Shown here one piece after another: positions 3,949-35,120 of a stretch of 64,000 nt of DNA. Source of the DNA: an uncultured Clostridia bacterium (lineage in GTDB: Bacteria > Bacillota > Clostridia > Christensenellales > UBA1242); the NCBI GenBank assembly GCA_944381145.1, contig CALWJZ010000001.1, forward strand, positions 65,125-129,124. The letters are read 5' to 3'. A program made the position numbers and the translations under genes. Position 1 is the stretch's first letter. Each line of letters starts with the position of its first letter. Below the pieces are notes generated by a model. It was not told the DNA's origin. It searched no databases and was given only the letters and a program-made list of their open reading frames with translations.

Positions 3949-3977
3949 TTGACTAATTTTTTTATTTATATTAAACT
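3949..3977 (+). promoter_or_regulatory. Sigma-A-type promoter for tRNA-Trp
   Basis: TTGACT (3949-3954), 17-nt spacer, TAAACT (3972-3977), ending 15 nt before the tRNA 5' end. Confidence 0.5.
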
Positions 3978-3991
3978 AATTAAGTTTTCAA

Positions 3992-4066: not shown

Positions 4067-4081
4067 ATAAAATATTTTTTG

Positions 4082-4112
4082 AAAGTTTTTATTTTACATA
4101 AAAACTTTTTTT
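4082..4112 (+). terminator. Rho-independent terminator after tRNA-Trp
   Basis: 10-bp stem AAAGTTTTTA (4082-4091) / TAAAAACTTT (4099-4108) followed by a T-run. Confidence 0.7.
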
Positions 4113-4314
4113 AACTTTATCCAAATTTATTTGTAATAATTATGCAAAAAAATAAATAAATATTCTAATATAAAAAAGTTACAAAATAATTATATTAAAA
4201 TAGTATTTTTTTGTAATTGTAATTTATTTATTATTTTTAATAAGTTTCAAAACGCATTATATAGTGATATTTTATATAACAAATTAATAATAAACTTCAA
4301 TAAAAAAACTGTAT

Positions 4315-4761: not shown

Positions 4762-5043
4762 ATAAACTCCAAATTATTTTTCAAAATTTTACTCAAAAAT
4801 GAACTAAAAGTCAAATGCTATTTAATTACAATTAATTTATTTTAAATGTTTAGATAAAATCAAAATAAAAATATTTAATATTGTTTTGTGGGGGCTTTAA
4901 TAGGTTAATTTTGAATTTTTTTTATTTATTAAAAATTTTATAAATCTTACCTGTATATTTGCTTGTGTATAAAGCCAGCATATCTGCCTGTATATAGAAT
5001 GATAGAAAATTAAAAATAATTGTCATTTACTGTCGTAAATTGT

Positions 5044-5072
5044 TTGACCTAATTATCTTTTATATATATAAT
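5044..5072 (+). promoter_or_regulatory. Near-consensus sigma-A-type promoter for the giant ORF
   Basis: TTGACC (5044-5049), exactly 17 nt, TATAAT (5067-5072). This predicts a 5' UTR of about 100 nt. RBS AAGGGAG lies at 5170-5176, 7 nt before the ATG at 5184. Confidence 0.6.
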
Positions 5073-5183
5073 ATATAAGATTAATTACTTAACTTAAATA
5101 AAATAATTTTTTATGTTTAAAAATTAGTATGTCGTCAATAAAAAAACGAATTTTACAAATAATAATTTCAAGGGAGTTCTGGT

Positions 5184-8100
5184 ATGTCAAAACGTGTCAA
5201 ACCAAATTTTAGAGTAAAACATCCTTATTCTTATTTAATCAAATCTATCTTGCTTGGAATAGTAATGCTGTTTACAGGTATTTTTTCTGTGTCTATAGCA
5301 GGATTTATGAAACCAGATTCCTTGCCTGAAGATGTTGATGCTATGCAATATGATGCGATGAAGATAACTACTCACTATGAAGTAGATGATAATGTTGAAG
5401 GCATAATTAATCCAGATAATGGAATACCATATTCTTCTTATCCTGTTTTTATTGATTATGTTGGATCGGAAATATATGATGACCATGTTTCTAGCCGCCC
5501 TCCAGATAGTTCTTCATATATAAACGCTGATGTAGAGATTATTCTTCCAGATTATAGTTTTAGATATGAAGAAAAAATTCATATAGTTACGTTATATTCG
5601 GCTCTTAATAGGCCCATAATACAGTCTGTACAAAACGGAAATATTACTTGGGGAACTTCAACTGATTTTGGCTATAATGTATATTATGTTACAGAATCAG
5701 GAGAATATGTTAAATATAATCTTGACTATGAACAAAATGGTCCAAGTTATTCTACTATGTTTACCATTAGCAATGAGGATCTTTATAATAATGGTTATGT
5801 TGGTATAGTTATTAGTACAAAAGGTCTATTATTTGGTACAAGTGGAGATACTTTTATAGCGATTGATGAAGTAGCATCTTCGCAAGAGACAAAAAAAATA
5901 ATAAATGTTGAGGTTGGAAGATTGGAAACAGAAACACCTGAACCACCACCTACATTCGGACCAGCCAATTTGGGATCATATTCCGGTAATGGTACATCTG
6001 GACTTACTGGAAGAACTGTTGAGGGTGACGGAACACCAAATAAACCTTTTAAAATTTATTCATGGAATGATTTTAGATTTTTGCAATATTATTACAAAGA
6101 CGAAAGTAAATGTTACTCATTGCAGTCAGATGTTACAATTAATACAAACTCATTTAATTACTATACTTATAGTCATGGCAACTGGACGGTAAAAGGAGCA
6201 CTAAGTTATAGCTCTACACCTATTGATTTTGATGGAATCTTTTATGGTAATGGTTTCGATATTAATATTACAACCAATTCAGTTAGATACTCGTTATTCG
6301 AAAGTGTTTCATTTTATTCTATATTGAAAGATTTCAATATTATTGTATCTGCTACATATTCTACTTCTACATATTTCTATTATTCACTGCTTGTAGATGA
6401 AATTAGGGGAGGAACTTTCGAAAATATAAATATAGATTTAGGCAATAATTTTTATATTACTGCTAATTCTAGTTCAACTACACTTTCATCTAGTAGTCCA
6501 GATACAAATATTAGAGATTCTCGATCCGGTGGTATTTTTGCAAGAGCGATATCTGATGTAAATGTCTCTCGTAGTAATGTAAAAATTGTGAATTGTAATA
6601 TTATTGGAGATATAAACTTATTAACGTATGGTGGATATTCTTTTGGTACTTTTGTGGGTTATATAGACACGCATAAGGGAGTTTATATCTCGCATTCAAC
6701 ATATACTGGTACAATATTTATAAATAGAAGAACATCAAGCAATTATCAATCTTCTACAATAAAAGGAAAATATTTTTATTCTGCTACATCTGCATGTGTA
6801 GGTACAGTTCGTTCATCAACTACCCATGTTACTTTTACGCATGTAAATATTAATGCATCATTTTATTTCAAAGCTATTTCTAATTCAACAACTTATCAAT
6901 ACAAAACATATGCAAGAATTACTATTGCTGGTTTTGTAGGTGGTTGGACTGACTACTTTGATCCTAATAGTGCTAGTAGTAAGATTTCATATTCTTATTG
7001 TATGTATAACAAAGATCCAGGACAATCATATGCAGTAGGTGTTGCAAGCGGTTATACAGCTTCAACGATATTAGGTACTACTAAGACATACAAGAGACTT
7101 TATATATATCACACAACGCCATCAACTTCTTATCATACGTATAATACTGCAACGTCAAGTTTCACAAGTTATTATTTATCATATATTTATGGAACTAGCT
7201 TAACAACTTCTACAACTCAATCAACATTTAATAATACTTTCAATAGTTCAAGTAATGGAAATTCTAATGGTTGGTATTATGGAACTGATAAAAAGATATA
7301 TAAAAGGTCAATAAATGTACTAAATTTTTCTACTAAAAGTGGAAATTATACTACTGTAACTCCTGTAAATAATGTTTATAATATTAGTAACGCTAAACAA
7401 TTGAATTATATTAGTTATTTATGTAATAATAATGGTACTAGTTTTTCTGGTAAGACTATAAAATTAACAGCTGATATAGATATGCAAGGATATAATTGGG
7501 TTCCACTTTTTTGCCTTAGTAAGGCTACATTTGATGGTAATGGCTATACAATCAAAAATTTATATATCGATACACCTAGTGTTGTTGGAAAAATGTATGA
7601 TGGATGGTCTGCCTATCGAAATTACATTGGTTTTGCTGGATATTTTAGCAATTCTACTATTAAAAACCTTACATTTGAAAATAGTTTTATGTATATAAGT
7701 GATATTCCTAATTCCTTTGAATATGGATCAAGTGGTATTGGGTCAATAAGAAGTATTGGAATGATTGTAGGACGTTTGAATTCATCAAATTGCTATAATG
7801 TATATACAAAAAATTCTGGTATGTTTTTGTCAATGTATAATGGTTATAATTCTATATCATCAACTGGTGTTCCTACATCAAATTCACTTTATAATTATAT
7901 CTCACCTTGTATAGGTTATTCGCTTCAAAATTCCGATATTAGTGGAATTGTAGTAGATAATTTTCGATTAGGAAAAGATGATGCATTTGTATCTTCAACC
8001 ACATTGAGTACATATGGATTTTATGTATTTGGTGGATTAACAGGCTATGCTTCTTATACTGATTCAAAAGAAGTTGTTATATCTGATATTTCAAATATTA

Positions 8101-29100: not shown

Positions 29101-32100
29101 CAAATTCAAATAATTCACTTTTAGTTTCAAATATTTATAATAGTGGAATAATTGAAGTTAAAAAAGATAATTCTGGATCAAATACATATGTAGCACCATT
29201 AATTGTGAATATGGGAACTGGCTCTGTCACTCTTAATAATGCAGTTTATTTAATTCCAGCAATAACTAGTACAGGGGATATTGATTATACTGTTGACTCA
29301 GGTATTATTGCTAACTCAAGTACAATAAATTCAGTTTCAGGTAAAAATAATTCAGAAATCATAAATATATCAAATACATTCTCTACAGATTTATGGAATT
29401 TTGTTCAAATATGGAGTGTATATTCTGATGTAAATAATGGACTTCCAGTGTTTAAACATTTCAATGATTACATTGTTAAGTTGCCTTTTGATAGTAATTA
29501 TCAATATATAAGTTCAGATAATTTACCAGATAAATACTTTACATATCAAAAACCAGAGATTTCAAAATATGTTGTTATAAGGGATACTATTTCTGGAGAA
29601 GATTATGTTATAGATATAGACACTTCGGGATTAATCATCACTGAAAATGGAATTTCAAATAATTTCATAACAATTAACGATGTTTATATCAATGATGATG
29701 GTACTATTTATATATATAAAGGTGCAACTGTAACACTTAGAGTTACTTCTGTGATTTATAGACATATAACTTCTATATCATTAAATCACAAAAATTCTGA
29801 AATAACATCGATTACAGAGAATTATACTAGAACTTCAGATGTTCATAATTCTGACGGTCAAAAATTAGGAGTTAAATTTGATATGTCTCCTAATGCAAAT
29901 ATTTTTGATATTTATGATCGTAATAGATTTGATTATTTCATTACAATAACAGAAGCTATTGATACATATGACATCTCTGCTGAAACTTCTGAAGTTACAA
30001 ATGATTCTGCTGTTAGCTTAATTGAAAACATAAGAATTTCAGAAAGTTTGGATAATAATGAAATAAGTGGAGAAAATCCAACGCTTACAAATATTCAACA
30101 TGGAAGCATTGTAAAAATAGAGTTAACATTAAATCAAAATATATTGAGTGCAGAAAATACAAATATAAGAATAGATAATTGGTTACTTGAAGTAGATAAT
30201 ACTCTTGATGATGGAAGTGGTTATAATTATTTAACTGAAGATAAAACAATAGTTAATAGTATTGCAAGTAGTCCAGATAATTATAGTTTAAATCAAAATT
30301 ATAATGTTGCTAATTATGAATCTTATAATACTGATGGTTCAAAAACAACTTATGAATATGATGTAGAAAATGGTAAATTTAATATTCAATTTGTTGCTAC
30401 TGCTGAGACAAGTGGAAATTATATAATTTCTCTTGTAAAACAATGGTTAGTTCAAATCAAATTTAGTATTAATATTGATATAGGTACAGATTATCCTATT
30501 GTATTTGTTAATGGACATGAAGTTAATTCTACTTTAGAAAATAATTCTGCTTACATATTTAATCAAAATATTTTGAGCAATGGTATGACACAGAGTTATA
30601 ATACTGAGTACTATAATTACAATGGATTAAATGCTGTTCCTACTACAAGTACACTTGATACAGGAATTTATTCATTGCTTTCTACACTTGAACAAGATTT
30701 TGAGTATAACATAGGAGAAAATCTAAAAACATTAGACTATGTTAATAATTCATTTATTGTTAAAATCTTTGTAGATAATGGTGCAAGTATAAACTTTAAT
30801 ACTTATTCCAAAGAAGTTTATACATTTACAGGCTTTACTACAAGTAATAGTCCAGTTCCTACTGAAAATGTATCAATGAATACAATAGATGTAGGTGGTG
30901 AAATTTTGGATTTACACACTTTCAGAGTTGATAATTTACAAAATTCTTATCATGGAACAAATATGGTTGTTGCAAACTATATTCCAAGTAAACATTATGT
31001 AAATACAATTGTTGATAATGGAAAAGATATAGATAGATTACAGCCTAATGGAACAGTTTCTGCTTATGCTGAAGTTCCAGCTGATCCTTATGAAACTATT
31101 ACTGGAACTAATATAACAAGTGAAGTGCGTCATGCTAGAAATTTGACAATAACTTTAACTCCAGATATTAGATATACTCTTGATAAATGTTGTGTAAGAT
31201 ATTATGTTTATAAAGATGTAGAAGATACAGATGGAAATATTACAAGAATGTATTATAATGAAGAATCTGATACTTGGACAGATGATAAATCAACAATAAA
31301 CGAAAATTATCTTCCAATGGTAAAACACTACGTATCTGGGTCACTAGCTGAAAATAGAACAACACTTGACATTGTAGAAAGTCCTTATGATGTATTGTCT
31401 AATGATATAGAAACGGGAGATATTAATTATAATTATGTTATTAATATAACTAATCTAGTTGGTAATATAGAAATTCATATTACTTACATTAGAGATTATT
31501 GGAATGATACTCCAACAAGTACAAGTTTAAGTGGTAGTGGAACATATAATGATCCTTATCAAATAACAAAAGCAAGTGATTGGGGGTACTTAGTTAATAC
31601 CTCAAATGCATCAAATAATTATTACAAAAATACTTATTTTGCTGTAATGAATGATATTGACTTTAATTCTAGATTTACACCTAGTCTTAATGAATTTAAT
31701 GGCTACATATACGGAAATGGATTTGTATTTAAAAATGTTTTACTTGATGGATATTTACAATTAGGTAATAATTTTAGACATGTAAGGGATATTTCGGATA
31801 CAGATACAAATTATGTACGAGGTATCGGAAATGATAGTTACTTCGGTTTAATAAATAATCTTCAAATTAATGGTAATATATCAGATATTACATTTGACAA
31901 TTTACAAATTTTAGGCAGTATAAGTAATTCATTAGATAGCGAATATTCTGCAATAATAGGATTAATTGCTAAAAACGAAGGTACTATTACAAATATTATT
32001 ATAAATAACAATTCAAAAATTGAAGTTTTATCTAACGATGAATTAAATTCTACAAGCAATAAGTTTGTATCAAATTTAGGTGCAATTTCAGGAACTAATA

Positions 32101-35006
32101 ATGGTACTATAAGAAATTCTATTAATAATTCCGAAATTGTATACAATTTTGATGAATCATCAATTTCTAGAGAATTATATTACATTTCTGGTATTGCTGG
32201 ATTTAATAATGAAAATGCTTCGATTATTAATACTATAAATAATGGTAATGTATCTTATATTATTAACGGTCTAGTTAATAATACAACAAAAAATTTGCAA
32301 GGTATTTCTTTCAATGCTGAATCAAGTTTGATGTATAATGTAATAAATAATGGTAATATAACAGGAATTTCAAATACTTCAGGTATTACATGTGATAATT
32401 TGGGAACGTTAATTAATGCTTATAATACTGGTATAATTTCTGGTGGAACTACAAGTGGAATATCTGAAAATTTACTTGCTAATTCAATAACTAGAAATGT
32501 ATTCAATATTGGAACTGCTGATAGAATGACATATTCTCATATTGAAGAGTCTGCAATTATTGAAAATGCTTATTATTTATCAGATATAGGCTCAGGTAAT
32601 GGTTTTGGTCTAAATTCTGATCAATTCAAAGATCAAAATCAATTTGTAGAATTTGATTTTGATAGCGATTGGTATATGGGAGATAGTTATCCAAAACTAA
32701 GATTTGAAAATACTACTGGTTACTTTACGCTTGGAATCAATGATTATAGTAGTAATATAACTTCCAAAGATACAGGACTTTGGATTGAAAGTAGTAGTTT
32801 AAATACTATTACACTTGAGAGTTTATATAATAATGCATTAGATGTTTATGTAATTGATAGTTCAGATAAATTAGCATGGTTAAGTAGAATTACTTCTTTT
32901 GAAAATTCAGAAATTAGTGGAAAAACTTTTGTAATCGCTAGTGAAAATCCTATTGATATGTCAGGTAAGTATTTTACTCCAATTAATAGTGCATATAGCG
33001 ACGTTAATAATATTAACATTATAGGAATTGGTAAAAATAGTAGCGATATAGTTTCAAGTGACTTACTTGAAGAATCTGATGTTGAGAATGTTACAATTAC
33101 AAATCTAACAATCAGTTCAGAAAATCAATGGTACTGCACAGAAAAATTACAATCATCATTTATTGCTATGTCAACTAATTCATTAATCAAAGGTATTAAT
33201 ATTGAAAAAACCTTAATTAATGCTTACAATGATAGTAGTTCAATTGTAGGAATAGCAAATAATTCTAAAATTATTAATTGTAATTATATAAGCGGAAATA
33301 TTGCTTCTTATGGAATAGCAAATGAGACTCAAAATGATATCATTTCTTCTGGTATAGTAAATACTTTGAATAATTCTAAGTTATATGGTAGCTCAGTAAC
33401 TGGATACAATTCTGAAGGTATTTTGCATGATACGTTTGAATTTGGCACAGATTTAGGTGGAAGTTTAACTGCATTAAATAATTATGTTAGTACTAGTGGA
33501 TTATTTGGCAGATTAAATTCCGGAGAAAATTCAATAGTACACGAAAATTATTTCAACGGAATTATGTATAGCTTTGACTTTATCCAAAAAGTTTCTGGCT
33601 TAGGAAATAATTTAATTTCAATTGTTCAAAATAACTATGTCAAAGGTCAATTTAATTTATATCAATCAGATACAGAAGTATCTGGACTTGTGAATAGTAT
33701 TGATGTTAATGGACAATTAGATTATAATTATTCAGCAAGTGAATTTGTGGCAAAGCGTAATACAATTTCTAGCATTGTAAATAGTATAAATGCTGGATTT
33801 AATGGAAGCATTAATAAAAATTACTATTTGGTTGATAATTTGTCAGATCCTAAAATAGGTCAAACAATAACATCAAAAGTTAATAATTCTAATTCATATG
33901 TGATTACAGATGAAAATATCAAAGTAATTTCTTCTACTGAATTACGAAATCAAGTTCATTTCAAAGCAGATAGTACTTGGAATTTTGATGATATTTGGAT
34001 ATATATCAATGATGTTAACTGGAATTATCCGGTTTTGAGGTCAATATATGGATATGATACTTCAGATATTGAAATAACCATTTATAATCCAGTTGAATAT
34101 GATAATATTTCTAATCAATTAGGGACATTAAATATTGACGGAAATGAAATTATTACTAAAGATAGTGAAAATAACATTGTTTCTATTTATGGTAATATTG
34201 AAAATTCTACAGAATTTGAATATACTACAGAACTAAAATTTACTTATTCAGTTATGACTAATGATATATCAAATGCATATGTTTCAAATACAACAACTGG
34301 TTTAATTACCAGTACATTATTTGGAAAAGTTGATAAAGCTGGATCAGAAGTAGATGGTAATATTCTTCTAGAAGATGAGACTTATTATACTGAATATGCT
34401 GATTCTTGTGACAATGCAGATATAATTATTACTGAGACAATAACAGAATTGAATTATGGATTAATCATAACATTTAATGTTCGAGAATTTAATGTAACAG
34501 TAAATGCAACACTTACTGCAGATGAAGGAACCGATGGTGTTCAAGATACTGATTTTGTAACAATTTTGTTAGTACATAAGGACAAAAACGGTGTTGTTGA
34601 TTATTCATATTCTGTTAATTTGAGAAATGGTCAATCTTATACTTTTGCAAACATATTTAATGGTAATTATGATGTCGAAAGCAATGTAAGTGACTTTACA
34701 GTTACTACAGATGAGTATGGTAGTTATGAAATTTACATATTTTATCCAATATTCTATTTAAATGATACTGATAATACAAATATCACAATGGCAAAAAATG
34801 TTTCATATAATCCAACACTTATAGAGGAATATAAAATGCCAGAGTATAATACTTATGACAATATTTCATCAATAAATAATGTTAACTGTGAAGAAAATTC
34901 ATTAGGGTCATTTAAATTAGATACTATTACAAGAGATGTTGAATTTAATATAACTATCAACAAACCGTTGGAATATTGGCTTCATTCAACTGCTTCAAAT
35001 ATGTAA
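5184..35006 (+). CDS. Giant (9,940 aa) N-terminally anchored, S/T/N/Y-rich surface protein with multiple GLUG-like beta-helix cassettes
   Basis: The frame stays open for 29,823 nt in AT-rich DNA. All other listed ORFs over the same span are 95 aa or shorter. It has a strong RBS, a basic N-terminus plus hydrophobic segment 'SILLGIVMLFTGIFSVSIAGF' (about nt 5238-5306), recurrent cassette motifs (listed below) and a strong terminator about 20 nt after the TAA. Confidence 0.9.
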   Translation: MSKRVKPNFRVKHPYSYLIKSILLGIVMLFTGIFSVSIAGFMKPDSLPEDVDAMQYDAMKITTHYEVDDNVEGIINPDNGIPYSSYPVFIDYVGSEIYDDHVSSRPPDSSSYINADVEIILPDYSFRYEEKIHIVTLYSALNRPIIQSVQNGNITWGTSTDFGYNVYYVTESGEYVKYNLDYEQNGPSYSTMFTISNEDLYNNGYVGIVISTKGLLFGTSGDTFIAIDEVASSQETKKIINVEVGRLETETPEPPPTFGPANLGSYSGNGTSGLTGRTVEGDGTPNKPFKIYSWNDFRFLQYYYKDESKCYSLQSDVTINTNSFNYYTYSHGNWTVKGALSYSSTPIDFDGIFYGNGFDINITTNSVRYSLFESVSFYSILKDFNIIVSATYSTSTYFYYSLLVDEIRGGTFENINIDLGNNFYITANSSSTTLSSSSPDTNIRDSRSGGIFARAISDVNVSRSNVKIVNCNIIGDINLLTYGGYSFGTFVGYIDTHKGVYISHSTYTGTIFINRRTSSNYQSSTIKGKYFYSATSACVGTVRSSTTHVTFTHVNINASFYFKAISNSTTYQYKTYARITIAGFVGGWTDYFDPNSASSKISYSYCMYNKDPGQSYAVGVASGYTASTILGTTKTYKRLYIYHTTPSTSYHTYNTATSSFTSYYLSYIYGTSLTTSTTQSTFNNTFNSSSNGNSNGWYYGTDKKIYKRSINVLNFSTKSGNYTTVTPVNNVYNISNAKQLNYISYLCNNNGTSFSGKTIKLTADIDMQGYNWVPLFCLSKATFDGNGYTIKNLYIDTPSVVGKMYDGWSAYRNYIGFAGYFSNSTIKNLTFENSFMYISDIPNSFEYGSSGIGSIRSIGMIVGRLNSSNCYNVYTKNSGMFLSMYNGYNSISSTGVPTSNSLYNYISPCIGYSLQNSDISGIVVDNFRLGKDDAFVSSTTLSTYGFYVFGGLTGYASYTDSKEVVISDISNISGLDSVYDLANGSAIQKYITDVIINNVNVSNKTSTNTSRRIYNTYYEMSTNGYQFANRTSTLSTFLSTILKGDYADVWGVYTNQTSSSIQNLMENAVTIKLQSNPSCAHTSTKPVSVSGTCPICGSSGTTTENRCNLCNDVVSYSYNYPCGYDGNTCNANSLCPVCNVGTMEPSGTTDTDVQYWDLYCYGCNTRVEEAIEYACTNSSCSNSYLSYDCNCDSSYAWRLGKSDTWTIRNKDTNEIVGYYYHESGCTQKNPSIHTEAYGVECPNCGQNEYAPGFTYCVGCYEATGGLSIVCDSGWCYSCRTGSIETFTDYSWYIYEDSPIMSVSSHSGYTSQLLSNNSACCCASCDTSYTANYSGNNQLRAVTGSNPRVNTIYLVLYKCEPNAVFFDTKNNIDSGQTELYDNGILSKSTYRIPSTISSTYGTSNFIPSNNNYQEMYNTGSFACFPGESLYLVNNTGSTSLSHTIKSNSSSTTNLLELEESDYANLSTSTDPNVYNLKAYKYTVPSTYSGNFRSSNGNMLIEVNEGLKEAYFVVTFDAYSINEMDIVPTISKTGNGTLTKVGTYNLGNNTYDGSHISWLYKISGMDKNTQITITFGRPITNSTYYITPGSYSSLNYVRSYEKIYYRDSNEGTKSELTPTLSGNSKTFTFKPYQNSNYTYCSNFSSDTNLSSIAEQVPEIIMSYTDYNSSTDKWLTRVTINTSSYYAYSSNYTAESTITPKFRYYYNSSTYSSATSDLFCYLGNNGTSSTYFKILQSDNYKVGNYIYQAKLRYSTSSGTTIYSSTTASSNSNINTTKNDLTLDCSEYTSSTGGSNRTNRRYISINNISGVDNKYERVLYNFNITKPSNTSAKVYFNGTQVTGTTATGYYKYNTISIDFPGTDERIKNSYFAEVNYTYSTTSQSTTSSTNYYLAYDNSGLINQATGSSKGSAPTSNDFSMRWNNIPIIHSNKGIYSSANESWTPTIKVNLYRFTWDQIARATKDKYDDTNGAANIANALEWGRFLITQSSSSVSTYVLTNDIDFSPTNASFTSGGTTYHYDNEYIMNPSKSYTFSKVLDGQNHKFINIVALYGNTLEFGNALDSSYNGQSSILFNTYNSNTISDLYIYNPTIYYNLEASESVGMIFGRISTGANIHNFGIYTDSNHPIIVRGGSKFSFITLYHSGNSTLYNISMDICADFGVNENSTKNLVVSAIDTINNGPCYLKNSYFIMNSINSGKVQNISSTYKSTYSTININQSNNKIENVYVVSTNSNNNVTSYKKTINTNSGTVSNLYYLSNSADGGFGINLTETQFQTQNSFVGFPFGSVWVFDKSSTNLNSYVDSYNQFNRGYPLLVTSGMTLATIENFEFYLNGQKVTATTPTGNKVYISEDTNSNTITMMYNGDTNSSGDEPTWTLPNTIASISRQSISITLDKYINSRVYLQRVDYYNGSTTQTILAGQYGSFGSSSSQSTQSFTPRVNSNNTIRVYFTTPTINFRTNSALNISNAFTTNLTSSVFYTGYSNYYFLTDPLEFNITENREAIKISKIKFNTTTLQPFSTTSGNYITKSSSNYTFNSDKSVSISNFTSNLNIEITEVYVKVLTSSDSTNIPITIHTPGNSNVYNHSNNLYYLPYTSNNYSYEIKVTDRDNTNKIGSLKICNTTYYSSTTSYGSNVLQDGTNTQNSYLTIKYDTTNSKNSMYFNNQLASNTIPQKNLLKFAYDNSGLSNGSVLISQSKIQSTYNIVVRLGTIGNAPDIYNDIKLSYNNTYSSFNSSTNSTYNTSYQATATNLPINTNISLNLGFYNGSSVTKLSKASVDNNNYAPYLIDGKYYRMYWTTGVRNSSSSYITNSYTYTQSTTNTHYVNVYLVEMLTTKFLLYDAGIYNAPMYSSLYSVHGARASHTINIGYNTSASSSGSNTINQLSSLQNNNYVYYTDYNANASYQLTFDNSFEVGSQTYNLSELFQISYVKFNNVTQSLSNNSVSKNITSNSTFSPYIQLKTTQVGVYIVNPALQFSNSDANYLSNLIPWISFYTCSSGDSTHNRVNLSTYPNAQSGSQFQRLATWSGSSLNANANIYVTGTSNKVATISIKPTGTENNAFANLTDNYVYVVTTIYGNYFEITRGDKDTTTNESYDKNILVSLTSTNLGIKTQTKGTIDGRNQIISIHGHTLVKETSEDNNYSTIAFTYAPFVTLNFSSETINHSVQASNSIKTAVSNISVSAVMDNNPNVVINPFKSNNPEWTYDLTATQTSPEVNLVVTARLTIKNGYFYNGIKINNIEFGPDVETPGTQGITISLNGNTLTIVVTLNKQQYNQTDNNVLSNINPIFEEIKTYGPGSDATKGTSNIELVGRGTLKIFDYYGSNKNQLLITSNTSGSNMPIQNSTLNVYYYSQLEIVLTSATNFVWQYYKVNSFEKRNTSYANGQVTINSSTSGISSNNLGTVSNASQFTIYVEYVSKIKVVSSIQNDANYLSNHDISNNGIESLVSSIEATDNNITSKSVTFTLTPDENFKVMFYEIIVFKTTNPTSLNKSTNYVSYQLISSGSKEHSISYTNMQVSNSDFDSNFKTTLNTDKTELTIDFVYTRDGKSYSESNFFGATAYIEVIPYMIETPKIITLNNTTNSAGVKFAVDTTQVRYVRGSFTGNISSPNIELFYRSTGKTTATGTTANGYTTFDFGKVEASTKMVVYNDTVNHYDTIEISTNGTDWYTVYDKFVDGESTSTLTLDFVADNHLSFTNLSNNYYLDNLVASSTTNIISGMNAYIPVVANKTYSIYSFMENYGFKVHVYDNNFQQISVSAEISAGNGIDYNVGSTGAYIGLTFIRSSSASSSSANLQELKNNFNIGFQIYTSGSADIDFYSPTEIYVGSDSNIKLESADGVGVRLVTKTDSYVNEISTSASNGTDYLRNDISEINGATNAFYVGSRKYYQFNPKYDIDINVVSSNATLNADIINSIVSDISHSSLLNSNNGKYFSKSNSLNPTANDFEFNYSNINLPIGYEFVSLSLVGQNDNTYVSSYYTESTSLSGYFDHEEKDNSETFTVKLTIKEVEYEYTFGHNCNNSSCPECLQGHLNVYTSLANSNSSSVVSTTGQPKINVAQLIVKASSNATVSDNSTIAPTSISSNIPKAVYNGGSMYSNIDQIKKTTITLGYFSYTYVEAISSNPNEIFIGKWDIIDSTENGNNNVSTYAYYNWQGNSDTKTFGMANGEYVEHYIDRNLDKLSFDSNYTVNIRHQFFSTYKIYLKAFINNYINSTSLVENASVIEHSNTISASNTEIYNIKDVNDNIIGNINVVISGDYTKGTESNIPYIRLIAGNNVTITYTDTSEYHAINQGKVTGSNLHYGSGSTVVDEIILSEDNTTIQFNNRSGTSGYDNNEINSNNWLEGYNPTSNGTITYTLSNTGSTTSYSSSNLTFETYFDTYHKIYFDRINATPSDGILATGEISITENEDSANSSNSDNSSGTTLGQNYIILYVKEGNSFKLSAEDGSNSSDGLYAKDKVYSISQLINGSFVINGIYEIDSSKFKSDSYNTYYQTIIQPTTYNTEGLYSTESIDVVSSLSQDLYYTAFYASAMQMQIEYDLLSDNINENFVVKFDNSTNEILLGTDGNYGKVSVWSNFDCTVSAPLHTDGYIIVGSNGNFVSTPNLYFKYDGSGENVYNSTYAFSKMQYYTGTNISGNCEFVDLVSTETSANSKIYLSDSVSYDTKFKDNVNSNHTNHSAIKILLSKQYDVNIIYRIRTSVDDNYANINIRNNAYVYLGTNTLPTASNYSNSFNNYNNDENSYSYFTRRFTYNTDILLSAYVPTNNVYLPDTGGITGNFRIVRISRELQFDLGETINHDGFANATLNFTVTSDTAGIYYIDIVQVLKLDTYAPEREYISLTGYNNRGSHIGATIEFENADGKQIYDGFTIYSHNDSTSTLTGKYVDKYDTVTIKPIFEEGFEANIVENSQFGFQNIENLSSNGDGSYNFVAIINHVNSESSSNAIKLFTIEKKVYYDMYYGICDKDGNLYTSSSLPEGITLSSLFAQGAKTIVTNDNIISNSNPTTYITGYILSDTPVEGYNNITTVNRYIGYFGNIEFTVETNVVTGGYQFRKFVIDGQNELYDPAITHNITGFNHNGLTNKGANNYTGVIELVDNTAVVNTDTIALSAYFVYTYAITIDVRSSDAQDIDLGGSDFNTLFGTNEFLKNGLIYNKQYIVEYGDSITQSISALIKPRFSSNGNYIKGYMYYTLAKNSNSNITTNRSGDTLNITIGNVISSESISIIYHPILCISLNPVISGKGTITTEFSNTSFDVNSYTNWNNNNSNIGVSYTSTSRMYSNGNTKSTQNIEPVQTPAIFEKTYQDSTTTYVYVVYGGSGASGLKYTTTATPYIENADNIESSERYIPHELYSNGITKHYQIEVSTGVFVDYEELADGVNNNTLVDSSLRENYYSNNLLEITDENNQNILPVVNSFEIGGSFVREYTIEINTHLSDYNTHPSSNIYIVVNGVEYLIETSNEEGDYYYKNVHALNDLNDSSSNENEITNIIVEWDDDKYEFIYDQVDLINNNSTVSSYQTLGASNTIRNSDENIVAYANALPIGTELFNDKYSRTFNFVEKRNVTLTVNPEYLNADLQPNIKIEQLISDPNGVNVEGGSNKFKPDSLTDGNYVGTNISVDNIETHNNSISATVQASNYEITLYAEDISQASSYKFNGFIINGVLNDNVTVDGIYYKLNVAIPSDNLGTTYNIVADYTLDTTNKDIINIKGNGYFEFGYSTANTASEAVQNYTKFNDTKYADVINEITKDVVALENNNVNYLVIKAYPDNYSKLDSVSAMYPDATDLDFSLGFDTDNATFVDYLYDQNNNLFVYSVKDYGPSYDYMQVNTEITLVFTSDTWREHTEEITTSTITKNSISKTGYHVTTPQQLAYLASNSTILESSNTIIYIDANLDLSSYLWLPIENFAGQIISEKYSITGINVVGQQNIVLESNIPGTVVFTNVYTTNKGYSSNPTKQYYVYTQDSSMGLFGSTNGATIEGLNIGNFNGTYYNSKNVYNGSIIGNATNTTILDVNLTSNINYTSISSTVTSSNYYYSLFVGATNGYNVIKNCISTANYSSSVSGANINVSFIIGNSNCSSAVISTDNGMQTGDYISNVSLTSNSSNIRNAKNLAGIISNQTAISNIYADNIYINLSGDNSASTNVICNNINNSNIFKYDTIYSNNFYSSSESGDLFSIDRVSNYDNNRWNNSNQNNRNLRISSTLYESSLNVNAHVSGTESNPTIIPISSKDQLISNLNAINSDLSYVELRLTNNIDFGGDVWKTIDLPNGYTFNGAGYTISNIVLNEYNNLIDSKSLFGINNGIIKNLYLQDIYMLVGAMATYNPSNYAIIANENNGEIFSISVRGTIDVNINNSENNVVYIGGLIGTNNSNDLYEIELIGEINVGSFSLNTTSLKFVGGLVGYMNNGSLNKAHSSVVINTYGNSNVINTASKFGGLVGKHTSLIIKDSYFGNYENSEYLAGINEYEKTNNSMAYVISGEGTNLDVQSFYSSANFYIKSANGLSSGNINSNYAYMLNTTYSSLPSNITSITDENLKNQNSLVGFDFENIWYYDSSDYLYPKLIGNKNTHDLKVTLTVEGIDHVDSENIINVGTITNSKNYEQIIYGTKYENNHTNNSIDYYVQALHDDTISSGYTIDINANENYHIVAVILDGITIRSSNFRNVPVTSYEDLDLFEIINSGAFSNIEKTYANTNEHTLRIVFSKNFYYYGTGINGSTSNSSINEFGQITYTNEYGQTVVTSTSVNDKNNRLSDNTNYYNNRTSDTNTWTLSSSTQNFYYKNTSGQSAPNSANSTVTFTFNAKSVVGDINSYIGVRLIGWVYIPYGSLMTFDQAKTSSIIKYNDNGTVISIEANGEASSVIQYIDALSNTNLTSITLNNGKTTTRYISSSSITITSDALSEGYYYPYVEYVYTSSVVNTLHYHTHNENCYNDDGELTCNDDLTHSFDYGGSCTECINGYISINGFVYHVINNKVTYNDTDYLVSNNQVNIDGTIYNVYNNIQISYGSDFNTKEKTITPGDFVSDGKSIIIEIDEEREGSRIGVIARRFYDENTNSINIHYYVVENNLIVDAYYISEGNKISFNNEFINDLNGLYFLVNSEVENNEYVINLYFELNEKTAGEYAFYMVEKLYDVTLDITDVYKTSETSIVLFRNSDYTLSSTVVSIKNNNGIIQYMLGNSGTYVNLDETGVSNKVNVLGLSLKVDISINNELVHIVSQMPNNYYPRIVSTPIEKYRLTDESDSIKVTNILVGDDLDNKDYSGVKYTTYQDISTDGIRTKGYLSYDLNFNTTTYKSSMTYYYDYGILGPNDEKMVITLNMKKDNYSYFDQLNVTTKIPSYYSKYLSGSSSESMYYNNSKPLNYTDSELLTLLSNFQFATTDSNITSGEDGLTRSTAFTINNPYKLAWLSHILNNDINATYQVNGIDYYFKNAYYKISSNLDMSNKFWLPIPEFSGVMFSNNTATDIGSINNLFIELLSENVEDNVSFNVENKSDSNYVGFISKGVNAQFIGLNFENAYVNTDISVYTGILNGLSNNCYFDRINIANTEITQIDTSNTTDNLISLGAISGKANYMFVVNQSEIVHVKFNANHNNVSATIGFSDYFGEIYNTYSYVERGNELIISNPTLRFINSLNAIIKNCVHHVYSGVNDNDKLFNNNDISTYKDMNYIIVDNSATTQDSTAISKNSVIESNLSNLDFDRIWQINDSNTENIGYVSLKKSVFDMRTSSISLATESATDVGSKYNPYLIQSVDDFILFVNNMNSNSNNNISSYYKLTTDINLTGKYIYPIEIFNANLDGDNHIISNFYIYSDQGIELNGTTHYDTSLILTNNGNLSNLFIKDFYIVGSNAVNESTTAGFVARNNGIIENISFVGDIISNATYTSGVLGYNLSTNESMFGTINTVISDGIILGTYYTAGVVGFSDTYSKNDILANYSTILGYKNSAGVIANAQTTGVISNMYNVGKLMFGDDGSGTQSLSGVINSNSNNSLLVSNIYNSGIIEVKKDNSGSNTYVAPLIVNMGTGSVTLNNAVYLIPAITSTGDIDYTVDSGIIANSSTINSVSGKNNSEIINISNTFSTDLWNFVQIWSVYSDVNNGLPVFKHFNDYIVKLPFDSNYQYISSDNLPDKYFTYQKPEISKYVVIRDTISGEDYVIDIDTSGLIITENGISNNFITINDVYINDDGTIYIYKGATVTLRVTSVIYRHITSISLNHKNSEITSITENYTRTSDVHNSDGQKLGVKFDMSPNANIFDIYDRNRFDYFITITEAIDTYDISAETSEVTNDSAVSLIENIRISESLDNNEISGENPTLTNIQHGSIVKIELTLNQNILSAENTNIRIDNWLLEVDNTLDDGSGYNYLTEDKTIVNSIASSPDNYSLNQNYNVANYESYNTDGSKTTYEYDVENGKFNIQFVATAETSGNYIISLVKQWLVQIKFSINIDIGTDYPIVFVNGHEVNSTLENNSAYIFNQNILSNGMTQSYNTEYYNYNGLNAVPTTSTLDTGIYSLLSTLEQDFEYNIGENLKTLDYVNNSFIVKIFVDNGASINFNTYSKEVYTFTGFTTSNSPVPTENVSMNTIDVGGEILDLHTFRVDNLQNSYHGTNMVVANYIPSKHYVNTIVDNGKDIDRLQPNGTVSAYAEVPADPYETITGTNITSEVRHARNLTITLTPDIRYTLDKCCVRYYVYKDVEDTDGNITRMYYNEESDTWTDDKSTINENYLPMVKHYVSGSLAENRTTLDIVESPYDVLSNDIETGDINYNYVINITNLVGNIEIHITYIRDYWNDTPTSTSLSGSGTYNDPYQITKASDWGYLVNTSNASNNYYKNTYFAVMNDIDFNSRFTPSLNEFNGYIYGNGFVFKNVLLDGYLQLGNNFRHVRDISDTDTNYVRGIGNDSYFGLINNLQINGNISDITFDNLQILGSISNSLDSEYSAIIGLIAKNEGTITNIIINNNSKIEVLSNDELNSTSNKFVSNLGAISGTNNGTIRNSINNSEIVYNFDESSISRELYYISGIAGFNNENASIINTINNGNVSYIINGLVNNTTKNLQGISFNAESSLMYNVINNGNITGISNTSGITCDNLGTLINAYNTGIISGGTTSGISENLLANSITRNVFNIGTADRMTYSHIEESAIIENAYYLSDIGSGNGFGLNSDQFKDQNQFVEFDFDSDWYMGDSYPKLRFENTTGYFTLGINDYSSNITSKDTGLWIESSSLNTITLESLYNNALDVYVIDSSDKLAWLSRITSFENSEISGKTFVIASENPIDMSGKYFTPINSAYSDVNNINIIGIGKNSSDIVSSDLLEESDVENVTITNLTISSENQWYCTEKLQSSFIAMSTNSLIKGINIEKTLINAYNDSSSIVGIANNSKIINCNYISGNIASYGIANETQNDIISSGIVNTLNNSKLYGSSVTGYNSEGILHDTFEFGTDLGGSLTALNNYVSTSGLFGRLNSGENSIVHENYFNGIMYSFDFIQKVSGLGNNLISIVQNNYVKGQFNLYQSDTEVSGLVNSIDVNGQLDYNYSASEFVAKRNTISSIVNSINAGFNGSINKNYYLVDNLSDPKIGQTITSKVNNSNSYVITDENIKVISSTELRNQVHFKADSTWNFDDIWIYINDVNWNYPVLRSIYGYDTSDIEITIYNPVEYDNISNQLGTLNIDGNEIITKDSENNIVSIYGNIENSTEFEYTTELKFTYSVMTNDISNAYVSNTTTGLITSTLFGKVDKAGSEVDGNILLEDETYYTEYADSCDNADIIITETITELNYGLIITFNVREFNVTVNATLTADEGTDGVQDTDFVTILLVHKDKNGVVDYSYSVNLRNGQSYTFANIFNGNYDVESNVSDFTVTTDEYGSYEIYIFYPIFYLNDTDNTNITMAKNVSYNPTLIEEYKMPEYNTYDNISSINNVNCEENSLGSFKLDTITRDVEFNITINKPLEYWLHSTASNM
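6031..7320 (+). other. Giant ORF cassette A (beta-helix-like; approximate bounds)
   Basis: N-cap-like 'GTPNKPFKIYSWNDFRFLQYY..SLQSDVTIN..FDGIFYGNGFDINI'. Rung-like 'SGGIFARAISDVNVSRSNVKIVNCNIIGDI' and 'GGYSFGTFVGY'. Confidence 0.5.
7366..8400 (+). other. Giant ORF cassette B (beta-helix-like; approximate bounds)
   Basis: N-cap 'VYNISNAKQLNYISYLCNNNGTSFSGKTIKLTADIDMQGYNWVPL..ATFDGNGYTIKNLYI'. Closing 'GDYADVWGVY'. Confidence 0.6.
8418..9158 (+). other. Giant ORF Cys-rich region with about eight CxxC motifs
   Basis: CPICG-x10-CNLCN; CPVCN-x21-CYGCN; CPNCG-x11-CVGCY; CDSGWCYSCR; CCCASCD. Cys is otherwise rare in this protein. Confidence 0.8.
11025..12125 (+). other. Giant ORF cassette C (beta-helix-like; approximate bounds)
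   Basis: N-cap 'ALEWGRFL..STYVLTNDIDFSP..KVLDGQNHKFINIVAL'. C-cap 'TETQFQTQNSFVGFPFGSVWVFD..NRGYPLLV'. Confidence 0.55.
22737..23790 (+). other. Giant ORF cassette D (beta-helix-like; approximate bounds)
   Basis: N-cap 'YHVTTPQQLAYLASNS..TIIYIDANLDLSSYLWLPIENFAGQI'. Confidence 0.55.
23811..24855 (+). other. Giant ORF cassette E (clearest GLUG-like cassette)
   Basis: N-cap 'NPTIIPISSKDQLISNLN..LRLTNNIDFGGDVWKTIDLPNGYTFNGAGYTISNIVL'. Rungs 'YIGGLIGTNN', 'FVGGLVGYMNNGSL', 'FGGLVGKH'. C-cap 'TDENLKNQNSLVGFDFENIWYYDSSDYLYPKLI'. Confidence 0.65.
27310..28310 (+). other. Giant ORF cassette F (beta-helix-like; approximate bounds)
   Basis: N-cap 'AFTINNPYKLAWLSHILNN..YYKISSNLDMSNKFWLPIPEFSGVMF'. 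C-cap 'SNLSNLDFDRIWQINDS..GYVSLK'. Confidence 0.55.
28350..29465 (+). other. Giant ORF cassette G (beta-helix-like; approximate bounds)
   Basis: N-cap 'YNPYLIQSVDDFILFVNNMNS..YYKLTTDINLTGKYIYPIEIFNANLDGDNHIISNFYI'. Rungs 'TAGFVARNNGIIENISFVGDI', 'YTAGVVGF'. C-cap 'DLWNFVQIWSVYSDVNNGLPVFKHF'. Confidence 0.6.
31527..32705 (+). other. Giant ORF cassette H (beta-helix-like; approximate bounds)
   Basis: N-cap 'YNDPYQITKASDWGYLVN..YFAVMNDIDFNSRFTPSLNEFNGYIYGNGFVFKNVLL'. C-cap 'NSDQFKDQNQFVEFDFDSDWYMGDSYPKLRF'. Confidence 0.6.
32840..34050 (+). other. Giant ORF cassette I (beta-helix-like; approximate bounds)
   Basis: N-cap 'YVIDSSDKLAWLSRITS..SGKTFVIASENPIDMSGKYFTPIN'. C-cap 'STELRNQVHFKADSTWNFDDIWIYINDVNWNYPVLRSI'. 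Confidence 0.55.
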
Positions 35007-35026
35007 TTTTATAAGATTTTAAATTC

Positions 35027-35058
35027 AAAAAAAAAATATCCCGAAAGGGATATTTTTT
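35027..35058 (+). terminator. Rho-independent terminator of the giant ORF
   Basis: ATATCCC-gaaa-GGGATAT (35036-35053), extended by A/T pairs and followed by T5. It begins about 20 nt after the TAA stop. Confidence 0.8.
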
Positions 35059-35084
35059 ATATTTTTATTGCCAACATTTATTTA

Positions 35085-35120
35085 GTAAAAAAACACTCAA
35101 AAATATTGAGTGTTTTTTTT
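35085..35120 (-). terminator. Terminator of the convergent ABC operon (bidirectional shape)
   Basis: ACACTCAA (35093-35100) / TTGAGTGT (35106-35113), flanked by an A-run upstream and a T-run downstream. It abuts the permease stop codon at 35119-35121. Confidence 0.7.

Follow-up and report, generated by a model that had tools for sequence, protein, structure and literature searches.

A single uninterrupted gene encoding a protein of 9,940 amino acids occupies nearly half of the window, the 64,000-nt stretch of DNA from an uncultured Clostridia bacterium that was analyzed here. This gene is genuine, unbroken and native, and its product most likely represents a new family within the recognized class of giant surface proteins. 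In our reading, it is probably a lineage-specific cell-surface protein, exported by Sec and tethered by its N terminus, with a mosaic ectodomain that serves in binding or adhesion. The features on which this reading draws are collected in Table 1.

Table 1. Features of the giant gene and its surroundings (window coordinates)
Feature	Residues	Position	Strand	Evidence or remark
rny		2112-3743		Just beyond rnhA
tRNA-Trp		3992-4066		Just beyond rnhA
rnhA		4315-4761	-	Upstream neighbor
Candidate sigma-70-like promoter, TTGACC-17-TATAAT		5044-5072	+	11/12 matches
RBS, AAGGGAG		5170-5176	+	7 nt before ATG; read from sequence
Giant CDS	1-9940	5184-35006	+	Stop codon included; orthologues and other assemblies
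Basic tail (aa 1-20) and single hydrophobic helix (aa 21-42)	1-42	5184-5309	+	Signal-anchor or signal peptide; hydropathy, conservation
Module 1, degenerate	280-700	6021-7283	+	hhalign against external GLUG proteins, E=3.4e-4, probability 38%
Module 2	725-1060	7356-8363	+	Leave-one-out HMM, E=1.3e-11; in A2
Cys-rich region	1078-1330	8415-9173	+	8 CxxC motifs, partly CxxC-x10-CxxC pairs
Module 3, degenerate	1950-2315	11031-12128	+	hhalign, E=2.2e-4, probability 45%
Candidate CBM32/F5-8 type C (discoidin-like) domain	3556-3698	15849-16277	+	Weak evidence
G-H-x-C-N-N-x-x-C-x-x-C-x-x-G-H motif	4011-4026	17214-17261	+	Candidate metal site
Module 4	5840-6195	22701-23768	+	Leave-one-out, E=1.4e-4; in A2
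Module 5, best preserved	6205-6560	23796-24863	+	Leave-one-out, E=1.2e-9; three GGL[IV]G motifs
Module 6	7380-7712	27321-28319	+	Leave-one-out, E=1.9e-5; in A2
Module 7	7725-8095	28356-29468	+	Leave-one-out, E=3.3e-9; in A2
Module 8	8780-9175	31521-32708	+	Leave-one-out, E=2.1e-6; in A2
Module 9	9210-9630	32811-34073	+	Leave-one-out, E=7.7e-4; in A2
C-terminal 310 aa, presumed distal tip		34074-35003	+	Without anchor motif or hydrophobic tail
Bidirectional intrinsic-terminator-like hairpin		35031-35058	.	12-bp stem, CCC/GGG core, T-run; 0 in shuffles
ABC-2 permease and separate ATPase		35119-38168	-	Convergent with giant gene
Tyrosine recombinase		43337-44377		8 kb downstream, not adjacent

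The reading frame is intact and native

The frame opens with ATG, contains no internal stop and accounts for 29,823 of the 64,000 nt of the window (46.6%, against the roughly 47% of a preliminary description made from the same DNA). The remaining ORFs of at least 80 amino acids within it encode 83, 95 and 94 residues only, within the limit of 95 given in that description, and its alternative frames hold 744 and 1,561 stops. From the local frequency of stop trinucleotides, the probability that such a frame is open by chance is about 1e-386. Codon usage in the giant ORF is that of the neighboring genes (RSCU correlation of 0.99; GC3 of 0.128 in both). Nucleotide repeats within the gene do not exceed 48 nt in length or 81% in identity, which bears out the earlier impression that near-identical repeats are absent, and its one tandem repeat is trivial. 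Self-BLAST of the whole protein gave no off-diagonal matches, and chunked self-BLAST gave only 10 weak pairs.

The gene is also present in other assemblies. Logan contig ERR4096266_40922 (24,610 nt) has its final 7,184 codons undivided: one gene of 7,184 amino acids is called there, extending beyond the limit of the fetched locus (L011), and the 12,943 nt that were fetched correspond to window positions 25119 to 38061 at 99.992% identity, with one SNP (S9446Y). A second Logan contig, ERR14964821_1385, matches window positions 1139 to 10888 without a difference (100% identity) and covers aa 1 to 1901. By arithmetic, it is only for about aa 1902 to 2756 (window positions 10889 to 13451) that the window assembly is the sole source. 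The claim that chance or assembly junk is implausible as an explanation for the frame is thus well founded, given its openness, its native codon usage, these other assemblies and the absence of repeats able to cause misjoining. The preliminary description went too far in placing the size at the extreme of bacterial proteins, since the longest predicted proteins surveyed reach 85,804 aa and the terms "large" and "giant" have been applied from 10,000 and 30,000 aa, respectively (West-Roberts et al., bioRxiv 10.1101/2023.11.21.568195). At 9,940 aa, the protein is large, and its size is not record-breaking.

The RBS and the GC-cored hairpin that had been noted at the two ends of the gene were both recovered, the hairpin starting 25 nt past the stop codon. 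The promoter that had been noted is also present, but promoter-like sites in this AT-rich DNA are no commoner than in shuffles, and the match alone is weak, leaving the site a candidate only. The placement between rnhA and an ABC operon likewise held, and tRNA-Trp and rny can be added beyond rnhA. The flanking genes form a core set (thiI, rny, rnhA, ABC-2, lexA, miaA, mutSL, miaB, PBP, and recA). The 20 flanking ORFs scanned include no gene for a sortase, a glycosyltransferase or accessory secretion, in agreement with the preliminary description. To its statement that no transposase or integrase lies beside the gene, we add the tyrosine recombinase 8 kb downstream, which is not adjacent. A polymorphic toxin was rejected as an identity for the protein, there being no toxin-domain match and no immunity-type ORF downstream before the terminator.

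Orthologues occupy the same chromosomal position

In five related Clostridia MAG species (contigs CAKVID010000001, CAKVHV010000001, DOEE01000003, SVHM01000001, and JAEDFU010000020), the order rny-rnhA-giant ORF is kept, with a collinear orthologue about 29% identical to the giant protein. These orthologues stay in frame until the fetched DNA runs out, at lengths of at least 5,035, 4,178, 3,369, 3,369, and 1,249 aa, and the comparison stops where the fetched loci do, with the C-terminal 5,500 aa beyond its reach. Residues 1078 to 4378 align collinearly with residues 1590 to 5035 of the L007 orthologue at 29% identity (E=0), and the identity, ranging from 20 to 45%, is spread evenly along the aligned length, indicating that all parts are under constraint. 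Some of the relatives are Clostridia MAGs from Hadza (human gut) samples; the JGI metagenomes scanned gave no match.

Orthologous loci split into several genes would, according to the preliminary description, argue against a single giant protein. Such split loci were found in two related metagenome populations, one with a +1 frameshift early in the orthologue (L003/L004) and one with an early in-frame TAG (L005), whereas the five MAG species showed no such split over the DNA fetched. These early lesions suggest that the giant protein is dispensable at least sometimes. Vertical inheritance within an uncultured low-GC Clostridia lineage, to which the gene is specific, is the best explanation for its distribution. 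Its fixed chromosomal position in six or more species-level lineages marks it as a stable lineage trait, and native codon usage together with the conserved synteny led us to reject the possibility that it is mobile-element cargo.

A single N-terminal helix and no C-terminal anchor

The basic N terminus and single hydrophobic helix of the preliminary description are confirmed by hydropathy. Basic residues K3, R4, K6, R10, K12, and K20 precede the sole segment hydrophobic enough for a membrane helix (aa 22 to 40; Kyte-Doolittle score of 2.29, with the runner-up at 1.46). The charge is positive on the N-terminal side of the helix and acidic residues come after it, which is the pattern expected for N-in/C-out insertion by Sec and supports such a topology. 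This N terminus (motif VKHPYSYL...ILLGI) is the best-conserved part of the family, at 58 to 72% identity versus about 30% elsewhere. At aa 37 to 40, the string S-I-A|G fits the -3/-1 rule for a possible signal-peptidase site, and relatives show FSA or VFA where the giant protein has S-I-A; cleavage there could set the protein free instead of leaving it tethered. The earlier proposal of a Sec-exported, N-terminally tethered surface protein is partly supported, by the charge pattern, by the single helix and by modules of a family found in extracellular contexts (see below).

At the other end, the preliminary description had seen no anchor that it could recognize, and we found none: the giant protein has no C-terminal LPXTG, second hydrophobic segment or other C-terminal anchor. 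LPxTG-like strings are internal only (LPDTG at aa 4764), and with no C-terminal hydrophobic segment and no sortase in the 20 flanking ORFs scanned, the protein was rejected as a sortase substrate. HExxH is absent throughout. The net charge is -412.

Divergent GLUG beta-helix modules

The preliminary description held the cassettes of the protein to be diverged beyond easy recognition. With profiles, seven to nine very divergent GLUG modules could be recovered, comprising seven beta-helix modules of about 350 aa and two that are degenerate. A2, a profile built from window modules only, matched 61 proteins, all but two of them annotated as PF07581 GLUG (best E=6.8e-14), and hhalign aligned it with external GLUG proteins over 327 columns (probability 99.6%, E=6.3e-24). 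A profile of the modules plus the A2-matched proteins reaches PDB entry 3N6Z (E=1.8e-26) and the N-terminal domain of IgA1 protease. Pfam GLUG and Peptidase_M26_N gave no match at E<=0.1 in ten 994-aa segments of the giant protein, and the only direct match of A2 in the PDB, to CsaA, was spurious. Because no single module reaches Pfam GLUG and A2 misses the PDB, the link to GLUG is transitive, via homologues and fold. Module 5, the sole module modeled, was predicted by AlphaFold2 to be a parallel beta-helix with moderate confidence (pLDDT of 70.9; pTM of 0.77), and the top Foldseek matches of this model were 3N6Z, 7UVL and 6XJA (TM of 0.48 to 0.56, probability 1.00). By profile homology, and in module 5 also by predicted fold, the modules are members of the GLUG beta-helix family.

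The modules share a cap-rungs-cap layout, starting with (D/N)PY.I, DIDL..W.PI and F.G.fdGnG..I.nl, continuing with GG(L/I)(V/I)G-type rungs and ending with F..FDF..(I/V)W......YP.L. The GG(L/I)(V/I)G rung motif is present in three canonical copies in module 5 and in single relaxed copies in modules 1, 2, 7, and 8, and is degenerate elsewhere. Both degenerate modules failed the leave-one-out test: in module 1 the N-terminal cap and first rungs alone are recognizable, and in module 3 only the C-terminal cap motif (FVGFPF..VW), although an internal BLAST match links aa 2244 to 2290 of module 3 to aa 9123 to 9168 (E=4e-6). The modules sit at both ends of the protein and are paired in its C-terminal 40%. 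GLUG proteins elsewhere also carry SLH, dockerin, PASTA, Listeria-Bacteroides-repeat and Fib_succ_major domains, all of which are extracellular contexts.

Other candidate domains and the dark regions

The CxxC motifs of the Cys-rich region (for example, C1093-C1096 with C1107-C1110) vary in copy number by species, the L007 orthologue having a cluster of 18, mostly in pairs about 14 aa apart. The region has no Pfam match, and its motif spacing, which resembles that of the two CxxC knuckles 10 to 20 residues apart in Cys4 zinc ribbons, suggests that it may form a zinc-ribbon-like array. Extracellular zinc ribbons are unusual, and we count this against that part of the reading. For aa 3556 to 3698, the signals are concordant but weak, with scores under curated thresholds: in alignment A4, one nonwindow member matches PF22633 (E=6.7e-4) and one matches PF00754 (E=0.035), and a four-orthologue profile of the region found 4A42 as its sole match in the PDB at E<=10 (E=0.027). 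A single-sequence AlphaFold model of the domain had a pLDDT of 37, too low to be of use. These signals hint at a CBM32-like sugar-binding domain. In the candidate metal site, residues H4012, C4014, N4015, N4016, C4019, C4022, and G4025 are identical in all four aligned species (columns H313, C315, N316, N317, C320, C323, and G326 of alignment A5).

About 6,000 residues, some two thirds of the protein, match nothing known; this dark sequence is rich in N, S, T, and Y, is conserved between species and is probably beta-rich. Searches of ten segments of the protein against Pfam and NCBIfam gave nothing credible, matches to DM13, BipA_C and CatM falling far short of the cut-offs, and phmmer searches of both protein halves against the PDB gave no match. 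Orthologue profiles of aa 2320 to 3000, 3000 to 3700 and 3700 to 4400 found nothing in the PDB at E<=1, and a weak match to HEPN_AbiA_CTD (E=0.007) was dismissed as chance. The profile of aa 3000 to 3700 found no homologue among proteins, and aa 3000 to 4199 matched only short orthologue-like fragments among 1.8 billion representative proteins. By hhalign, three dark regions showed no similarity to one another, nor did the GLUG profile to the dark region compared with it, and judging from the three regions compared, the remaining two thirds or so of the protein appears to be genuinely nonrepetitive.

A proposed role and its alternatives

We propose that the basic N-terminal tail would remain cytoplasmic and that the helix at aa 21 to 42 would target the chain to the Sec translocon, most likely staying embedded in the membrane as a signal-anchor, with about 9,900 residues threaded to the outside. 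The ectodomain would be a mosaic of GLUG modules, the CxxC-rich cluster, a candidate CBM32-like domain and the dark residues. Its most likely job would be binding, with glycans, food particles, host mucus and other cells as conceivable targets, and it may act as an adhesin or fibre; a protective, strongly acidic outer coat is also possible. The pneumococcal IgA1 protease has a beta-helix, homologous to the modules, in an N-terminal domain that contacts the Fab of its substrate IgA1 (PMC7695701), and this contact provides a precedent for a ligand-binding role.

If the N-terminal helix were instead removed as a Sec signal peptide, with cleavage following S-I-A at aa 39, the product would be released, held noncovalently by the wall or divided into separate functional parts. 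We regard this as unlikely: the putative site, with its counterparts in relatives, and the lack of any other anchoring device speak for it, but the hydrophobic stretch of 22 residues between K20 and K43 is long for a signal-peptide core, retention would more readily account for the far better conservation of VKHPYSYL, the motif of the cytoplasmic tail, and neither a protease domain nor HExxH is available for self-processing. A nonfunctional origin, as an assembly chimera or as a decaying relic open by chance, is effectively refuted. It could appeal to the metagenome-type sequence, to the segment seen in the window only and to the two relatives with a frameshift or stop, and it founders on the minute probability of an open frame, on the native codon usage and lack of misjoining repeats, on the other assembly with 7,184 aa as one gene and one SNP in the 12.9 kb compared, and on the collinear open-frame orthologues, at 29% identity, of five species.

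The modules and dark regions might also constitute a surface-displayed array of polysaccharide lyases, glycosidases or proteases that degrades rather than merely binds, which we think quite improbable. Many parallel beta-helix proteins are such enzymes, and the lower-ranked Foldseek matches include pectate lyases, PL6 alginate lyases, phage tailspikes and pectin methylesterase, but the lyase and tailspike matches (TM of 0.34 or lower, E of 1.8e-3 or worse) fall below those to 3N6Z and to the IgA1-protease N-terminal domain, which is noncatalytic. CBM32-like domains typically accompany glycoside hydrolases and the closest solved relatives of the modules belong to IgA1 proteases; against this, the whole protein contains no HExxH and no catalytic family from Pfam, NCBIfam or the PDB, and the orthologue profiles of aa 2320 to 4400 likewise found no catalytic family in the PDB. 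The reading that we prefer, a tethered binding protein, has a bolder extension, which we hold to be unlikely: the dark residues would comprise several new extracellular folds alongside zinc-ribbon arrays and a GHxCNNxxCxxCxxGH metal site, and the protein would be the main attachment organelle of a lineage attached to mucus or partner cells. If true, the surface fibre would follow an architectural principle distinct from that of repeat-based giant adhesins.

What uncultured gut bacteria adhere to is determined by giant surface proteins, of which hardly any from gut Clostridia has been characterized. The absence of near-identical repeats is unusual among very large adhesin-like proteins, and it means that short-read assemblies can recover the gene and that its segments lend themselves to study one by one, as unique domains. 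Its large dark fraction packs candidate new folds into a single protein, which offers a concrete target both for metaproteomics and for structure prediction that draws on orthologue alignments. No concept is overturned, large surface proteins in gut Clostridia being already on record.

Comparison with known systems

The GLUG (PF07581) and M26 IgA1-protease N-terminal beta-helices of known structure (3N6Z, BACOVA_03286; 6XJA/6XJB, S. pneumoniae; 7UVK/7UVL, G. haemolysans) have the cap-rungs-cap layout in common with the modules described here, and the model of module 5 predicts the same right-handed parallel beta-helix. Unlike the M26 IgA1 proteases, the giant protein lacks the M26 catalytic region, HExxH, G5 and LPXTG, and an identity as an M26 IgA1-specific metalloendopeptidase (ZmpA/B/C) was rejected for want of HExxH, of an M26 Pfam match and of a direct PDB sequence match. 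The typical GLUG proteins that we found are 300 to 725 aa long, with GLUG as their sole recurrent Pfam annotation, whereas the giant protein has up to nine GLUG regions amid about 6,000 aa of unrelated sequence.

Clostridia from mammalian gut metagenomes are already known to encode proteins of 10,000 to 30,000 aa, which have been given a binding role; these proteins carry Listeria-Bacteroides, YG or RCC1 repeats, and those of the RCC1 type are without membrane anchors (bioRxiv 10.1101/2023.11.21.568195). The giant protein shares their order of size, predicted extracellular location and proposed binding role, but it lacks their Pfam repeats, has an N-terminal helix and is essentially nonrepetitive. 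The giants of Omnitrophota have numerous transmembrane regions and divergent SecA DEAD domains and are at least 30,000 aa long (bioRxiv 10.1101/2023.11.21.568195). The protein described here differs from these in having one hydrophobic helix, no SecA domain and 9,940 aa.

Classical giant adhesins are LPXTG or serine-rich-repeat proteins in Gram-positive bacteria (Ebh, SRRPs) and T1SS substrates in Gram-negative bacteria (LapA, SiiE, MpIBP). Like them, the giant protein is very long, acidic, probably beta-rich and presumably projects from the cell; unlike them, it has no C-terminal LPXTG, near-identical tandem repeats, accessory Sec or glycosyltransferase genes, RTX/T1SS signal or T1SS genes. 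Assignment to the SRRPs, as an accessory Sec substrate, was rejected because the protein has no tandem repeats and its neighbors are core genes rather than secA2, secY2, asp or gtf. Assignment to the T1SS RTX/BAP adhesins was likewise rejected, since there is no RTX/HemolysinCabind match and the adjacent ABC-2 permease and ATPase genes are convergent and do not form an ABC-MFP-TolC system. A further difference from the classical giant adhesins is that anchoring of the giant protein, if any, would be by its N terminus.

An intact gene in a core-gene neighborhood

The giant gene is one open reading frame of 9,940 codons with an ATG start, at window positions 5184-35006 on the forward strand. Stops number 744 and 1,561 in the two alternative sense frames, and at the local frequency of stop trinucleotides 9,940 codons would stay open with a probability of about 1e-386, in agreement with the preliminary description, which had considered a chance frame implausible and other ORFs over this span small (those of at least 80 aa are only 83, 95, and 94 aa long). 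The expression signals proposed there were all found (see the table), with the qualification that sites of the TTGACC-17-TATAAT type are no more frequent here than in shuffled AT-rich sequence. A further hairpin and T-run lies at window 35094-35113, just 3' of the convergent ABC-2 permease gene; with two such structures within 90 nt, they appear to be separate terminators for the converging transcription units.

Features of the giant gene and its surroundings (window coordinates; residues of the window protein)
Feature	Window position	Residues	Remark
Upstream neighbors			aminotransferase fragment, thiI, rny, tRNA-Trp, rnhA
tRNA-Trp (CCA)	3992-4066		between rny and rnhA
Promoter-like TTGACC-17-TATAAT	5044-5072		sequence match
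RBS AAGGGAG			7 nt 5' of ATG, read from sequence
Cys-rich cluster	8415-9173	1078-1330	8 CxxC motifs, some as CxxC-x10-CxxC pairs
GHxCNNxxCxxCxxGH	17214-17261	4011-4026	candidate metal-binding site
12-bp hairpin and T-run	35031-35058		3' of giant gene
First downstream neighbors			ABC-2 permease/ATPase pair, convergent to giant gene
Further downstream			VTT, PadR, and YgjP genes, tyrosine recombinase, lexA, miaA, mutL, mutS, miaB
Beyond miaB			class A PBP, recA, pgsA

GC3 is 0.128 in the giant gene and in its neighbors alike, and the correlation of their relative synonymous codon usage (r=0.99) equals that between two halves of the neighbor genes. Near-identical nucleotide repeats, of which the preliminary description had seen none, are absent (none >48 nt or >81% identity), leaving nothing to misguide an assembler. 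In run ERR4096266, a Logan contig of 24,610 nt, whose called gene (7,184 aa) extends past the end of the fetched locus, matches window 25119-38061 without gaps over the 12,943 nt compared, the single difference being C>A at window 33520 (S9446Y, within module 9). A second Logan contig, from ERR14964821, shows complete identity across window 1139-10888, which takes in the first 1,901 codons. By arithmetic from the length of the ERR4096266 contig, only about aa 1902-2756 are seen in the window alone. That the gene is an artefact or a relic is effectively excluded.

The flanks consist of core genes, as described previously, and none of the 20 flanking ORFs scanned is a sortase, glycosyltransferase, or dedicated secretion gene, again as stated. 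The PadR gene (window 39148-40890, reverse strand) encodes a 580-aa protein, far longer than usual PadR regulators, in which Pfam recognizes nothing but a PadR domain at the N-terminus (aa 19-90); the end of the gene shares 4 nt with the VTT-domain gene. Two reverse-strand ORFs are without a Pfam match at E<=0.001, one of 290 aa (window 42285-43157), 5' of the tyrosine recombinase gene, and one of 399 aa (window 55470-56669) between recA and pgsA, a position often held by cinA in Firmicutes. The phage-integrase-family recombinase gene (window 43337-44377, forward strand) lies directly 5' of lexA and 8 kb from the giant gene; the enzyme may be Xer-type, because other mobile-element genes were not seen.

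A rare family of collinear orthologues

Scanning one genome per GTDB species yielded five MAGs with a relative of the giant gene, labeled Clostridia or Clostridiales bacterium (two from Hadza samples, one UBA11490). All five share an upstream gene order whose last member is a 529- to 532-aa ORF in the position of rny in the window, and each has a further ORF, the giant-gene orthologue, that opens with the shared N-terminus M(R/S)K..KP.F.VKHPYSYLI.SILLGI. The window protein is collinear with these orthologues; for example, aa 1078-4378 align with residues 1590-5035 of L007, the locus of one MAG relative, at 29% identity (E=0). Every 100-aa bin of the alignment is 20-45% identical, leaving no segment as unconstrained filler, and the N-terminal ~40-50 residues stand well above the remainder, at 58-72%.

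Orthologous loci split into many genes would, according to the preliminary description, count against its reading. The frame is open to the end of the fetched DNA in all five MAGs (at least 5,035, 4,178, 3,369, 3,369, and 1,249 aa), but it is interrupted in two related metagenome populations. At loci L003 and L004 of one population, a single extra base outside a homopolymer causes a +1 frameshift equivalent to aa ~1090 (L003 5431-5467; L004 the same). At locus L005 of the other there is an in-frame TAG (about 4946-4948) where aa ~690 would lie; past it, this frame is open for at least 1,308 aa. These interruptions could be pseudogenization, on/off variation, or assembly error. In both populations rnhA still adjoins the orthologue, and the sole nucleotide-level match between the window and L003 is the tRNA-Trp gene (93%), indicating that the tRNA-rnhA-giant gene arrangement is conserved.

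The family is rare. A word-indexed search of 5.8 billion proteins gave three matches to the N-terminal 1,200 aa and none to aa 3000-3700, exhaustive HMMER searching of 1.84 billion representatives gave three short fragments for aa 3000-4199, and two JGI metagenome scans gave nothing. Absence from these protein libraries is not absolute, since they evidently lack the MAGs' own giant proteins.

GLUG beta-helix modules

Sequence reading and chunked BLAST suggested nine ~350-aa modules, each starting with (D/N)PY.I...L, followed by DID(L/M)..W.PI and F.G.fdGnG..I.N, and continuing in irregular G-rich rungs to a closing motif, F..FDF..(I/V)W......YP.L. Cassettes had been described as diverged beyond easy recognition, but leave-one-out HMMs recovered seven of the nine (E 1e-11 to 8e-4, against 13 non-module control chunks); modules 1 and 3 were not recovered, and in profile-profile comparison module 1 matched only at the N-cap (E=3.4e-4) and module 3 only at the C-cap (E=2.2e-4). 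A profile of the seven, built from the window sequence only, retrieved 61 database proteins, 59 of which carry Pfam GLUG (PF07581), some together with SLH, dockerin, PASTA, Listeria-Bacteroides-repeat, or Fib_succ_major domains. Profile-profile comparison with 21 of these external proteins gave a probability of 99.6% (E=6.3e-24, 327 columns). In the PDB, a profile combining the modules with such hits found 3N6Z (E=1.8e-26) as well as N-terminal domains from IgA1 metalloproteases of Gram-positive bacteria; the window-only profile found neither. AlphaFold2 modeled module 5, with the combined alignment, as a parallel beta-helix (pLDDT 70.9, pTM 0.77), and the top Foldseek matches were 3N6Z, 7UVL, 6XJA, 7UVK, and 6XJB (TM 0.48-0.56), with pectate lyases and tailspikes scoring far lower. 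The modules belong to the GLUG beta-helix family, as divergent members.

Dark regions and candidate binding sites

Outside the modules and the candidate sites described below, about 6,000 aa (the dark regions) matched nothing in the segment-wise Pfam search proposed earlier, in NCBIfam or, by sequence or (for aa 2320-4400) orthologue profile, in the PDB. Three 700-aa dark regions showed no profile-profile similarity to one another or to the GLUG profile, making the protein a mosaic of unique segments and not a repeat array.

In the L007 protein, 18 CxxC motifs cluster between aa 1383 and 1835 (nt about 14147-15505), mostly in pairs about 14 aa apart, versus the 8 of the window protein, so copy number differs between species. 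The pairs recur every ~50-60 aa, and at loci L009 and L010 some CxxC motifs come straight after the membrane helix. The cluster resembles an array of zinc-ribbon-like knuckles that can expand, in a protein predicted to be extracellular. In the candidate metal-binding site, H4012, C4014, N4015, N4016, C4019, C4022, and G4025 are invariant in all four aligned species, with surroundings ~30% identical. Residues 3556-3698 are a weak candidate for a CBM32/discoidin domain: one aligned orthologue matches PF22633 (E=6.7e-4), and the sole PDB hit of the four-species profile at E<=10 is 4A42 (E=0.027), which we take to be a Clostridium perfringens CBM32. This region gave no usable structure model from single sequence.

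Topology, function, and comparison with known proteins

The basic N-terminus and single hydrophobic helix described previously were borne out (aa 21-42, Kyte-Doolittle 2.29; elsewhere <=1.46). Six K/R precede the helix and an acidic stretch follows it, a charge distribution that predicts N-in/C-out topology. N+S+T make up 35% of the residues and Y 8%, and the net charge is -412. Mid-protein there is an LPDTG (aa 4764-4768; window 19473-19487) with no hydrophobic or basic tail after it, probably fortuitous and not a sortase signal.

The evidence best supports Sec insertion of a protein whose N-terminal helix would tether a large ectodomain; alternatively, the signal may be cleaved at SIA↓G and the product released or processed. 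The putative ectodomain has GLUG beta-helix modules at both ends and paired in the distal 40%, alongside a candidate sugar-binding domain. The N-terminal domain of pneumococcal IgA1 protease, which includes the homologous beta-helix, touches the IgA1 Fab in the solved structure (PMC7695701) and provides a precedent for this fold as a ligand binder. We infer a function in adhesion or binding, possibly as a coat. A hidden enzymatic activity is an alternative; the protease motif HExxH does not occur in the window protein.

As a whole, the protein belongs to none of these classes: M26 proteases, LPXTG adhesins, SRRPs, T1SS adhesins, and Omnitrophota-type giants. Its size had been called extreme among bacterial proteins, but 9,940 aa is big and not extreme against classes of "large" (>=10,000 aa) and "giant" (>=30,000 aa) proteins (West-Roberts et al., bioRxiv 10.1101/2023.11.21.568195). 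The same survey noted gut Clostridia proteins of 10-30 k aa, carrying other repeat domains. What is new here is an undescribed, syntenic, lineage-restricted protein family, with proposed N-terminal anchoring, construction without repeats, and large orphan content.
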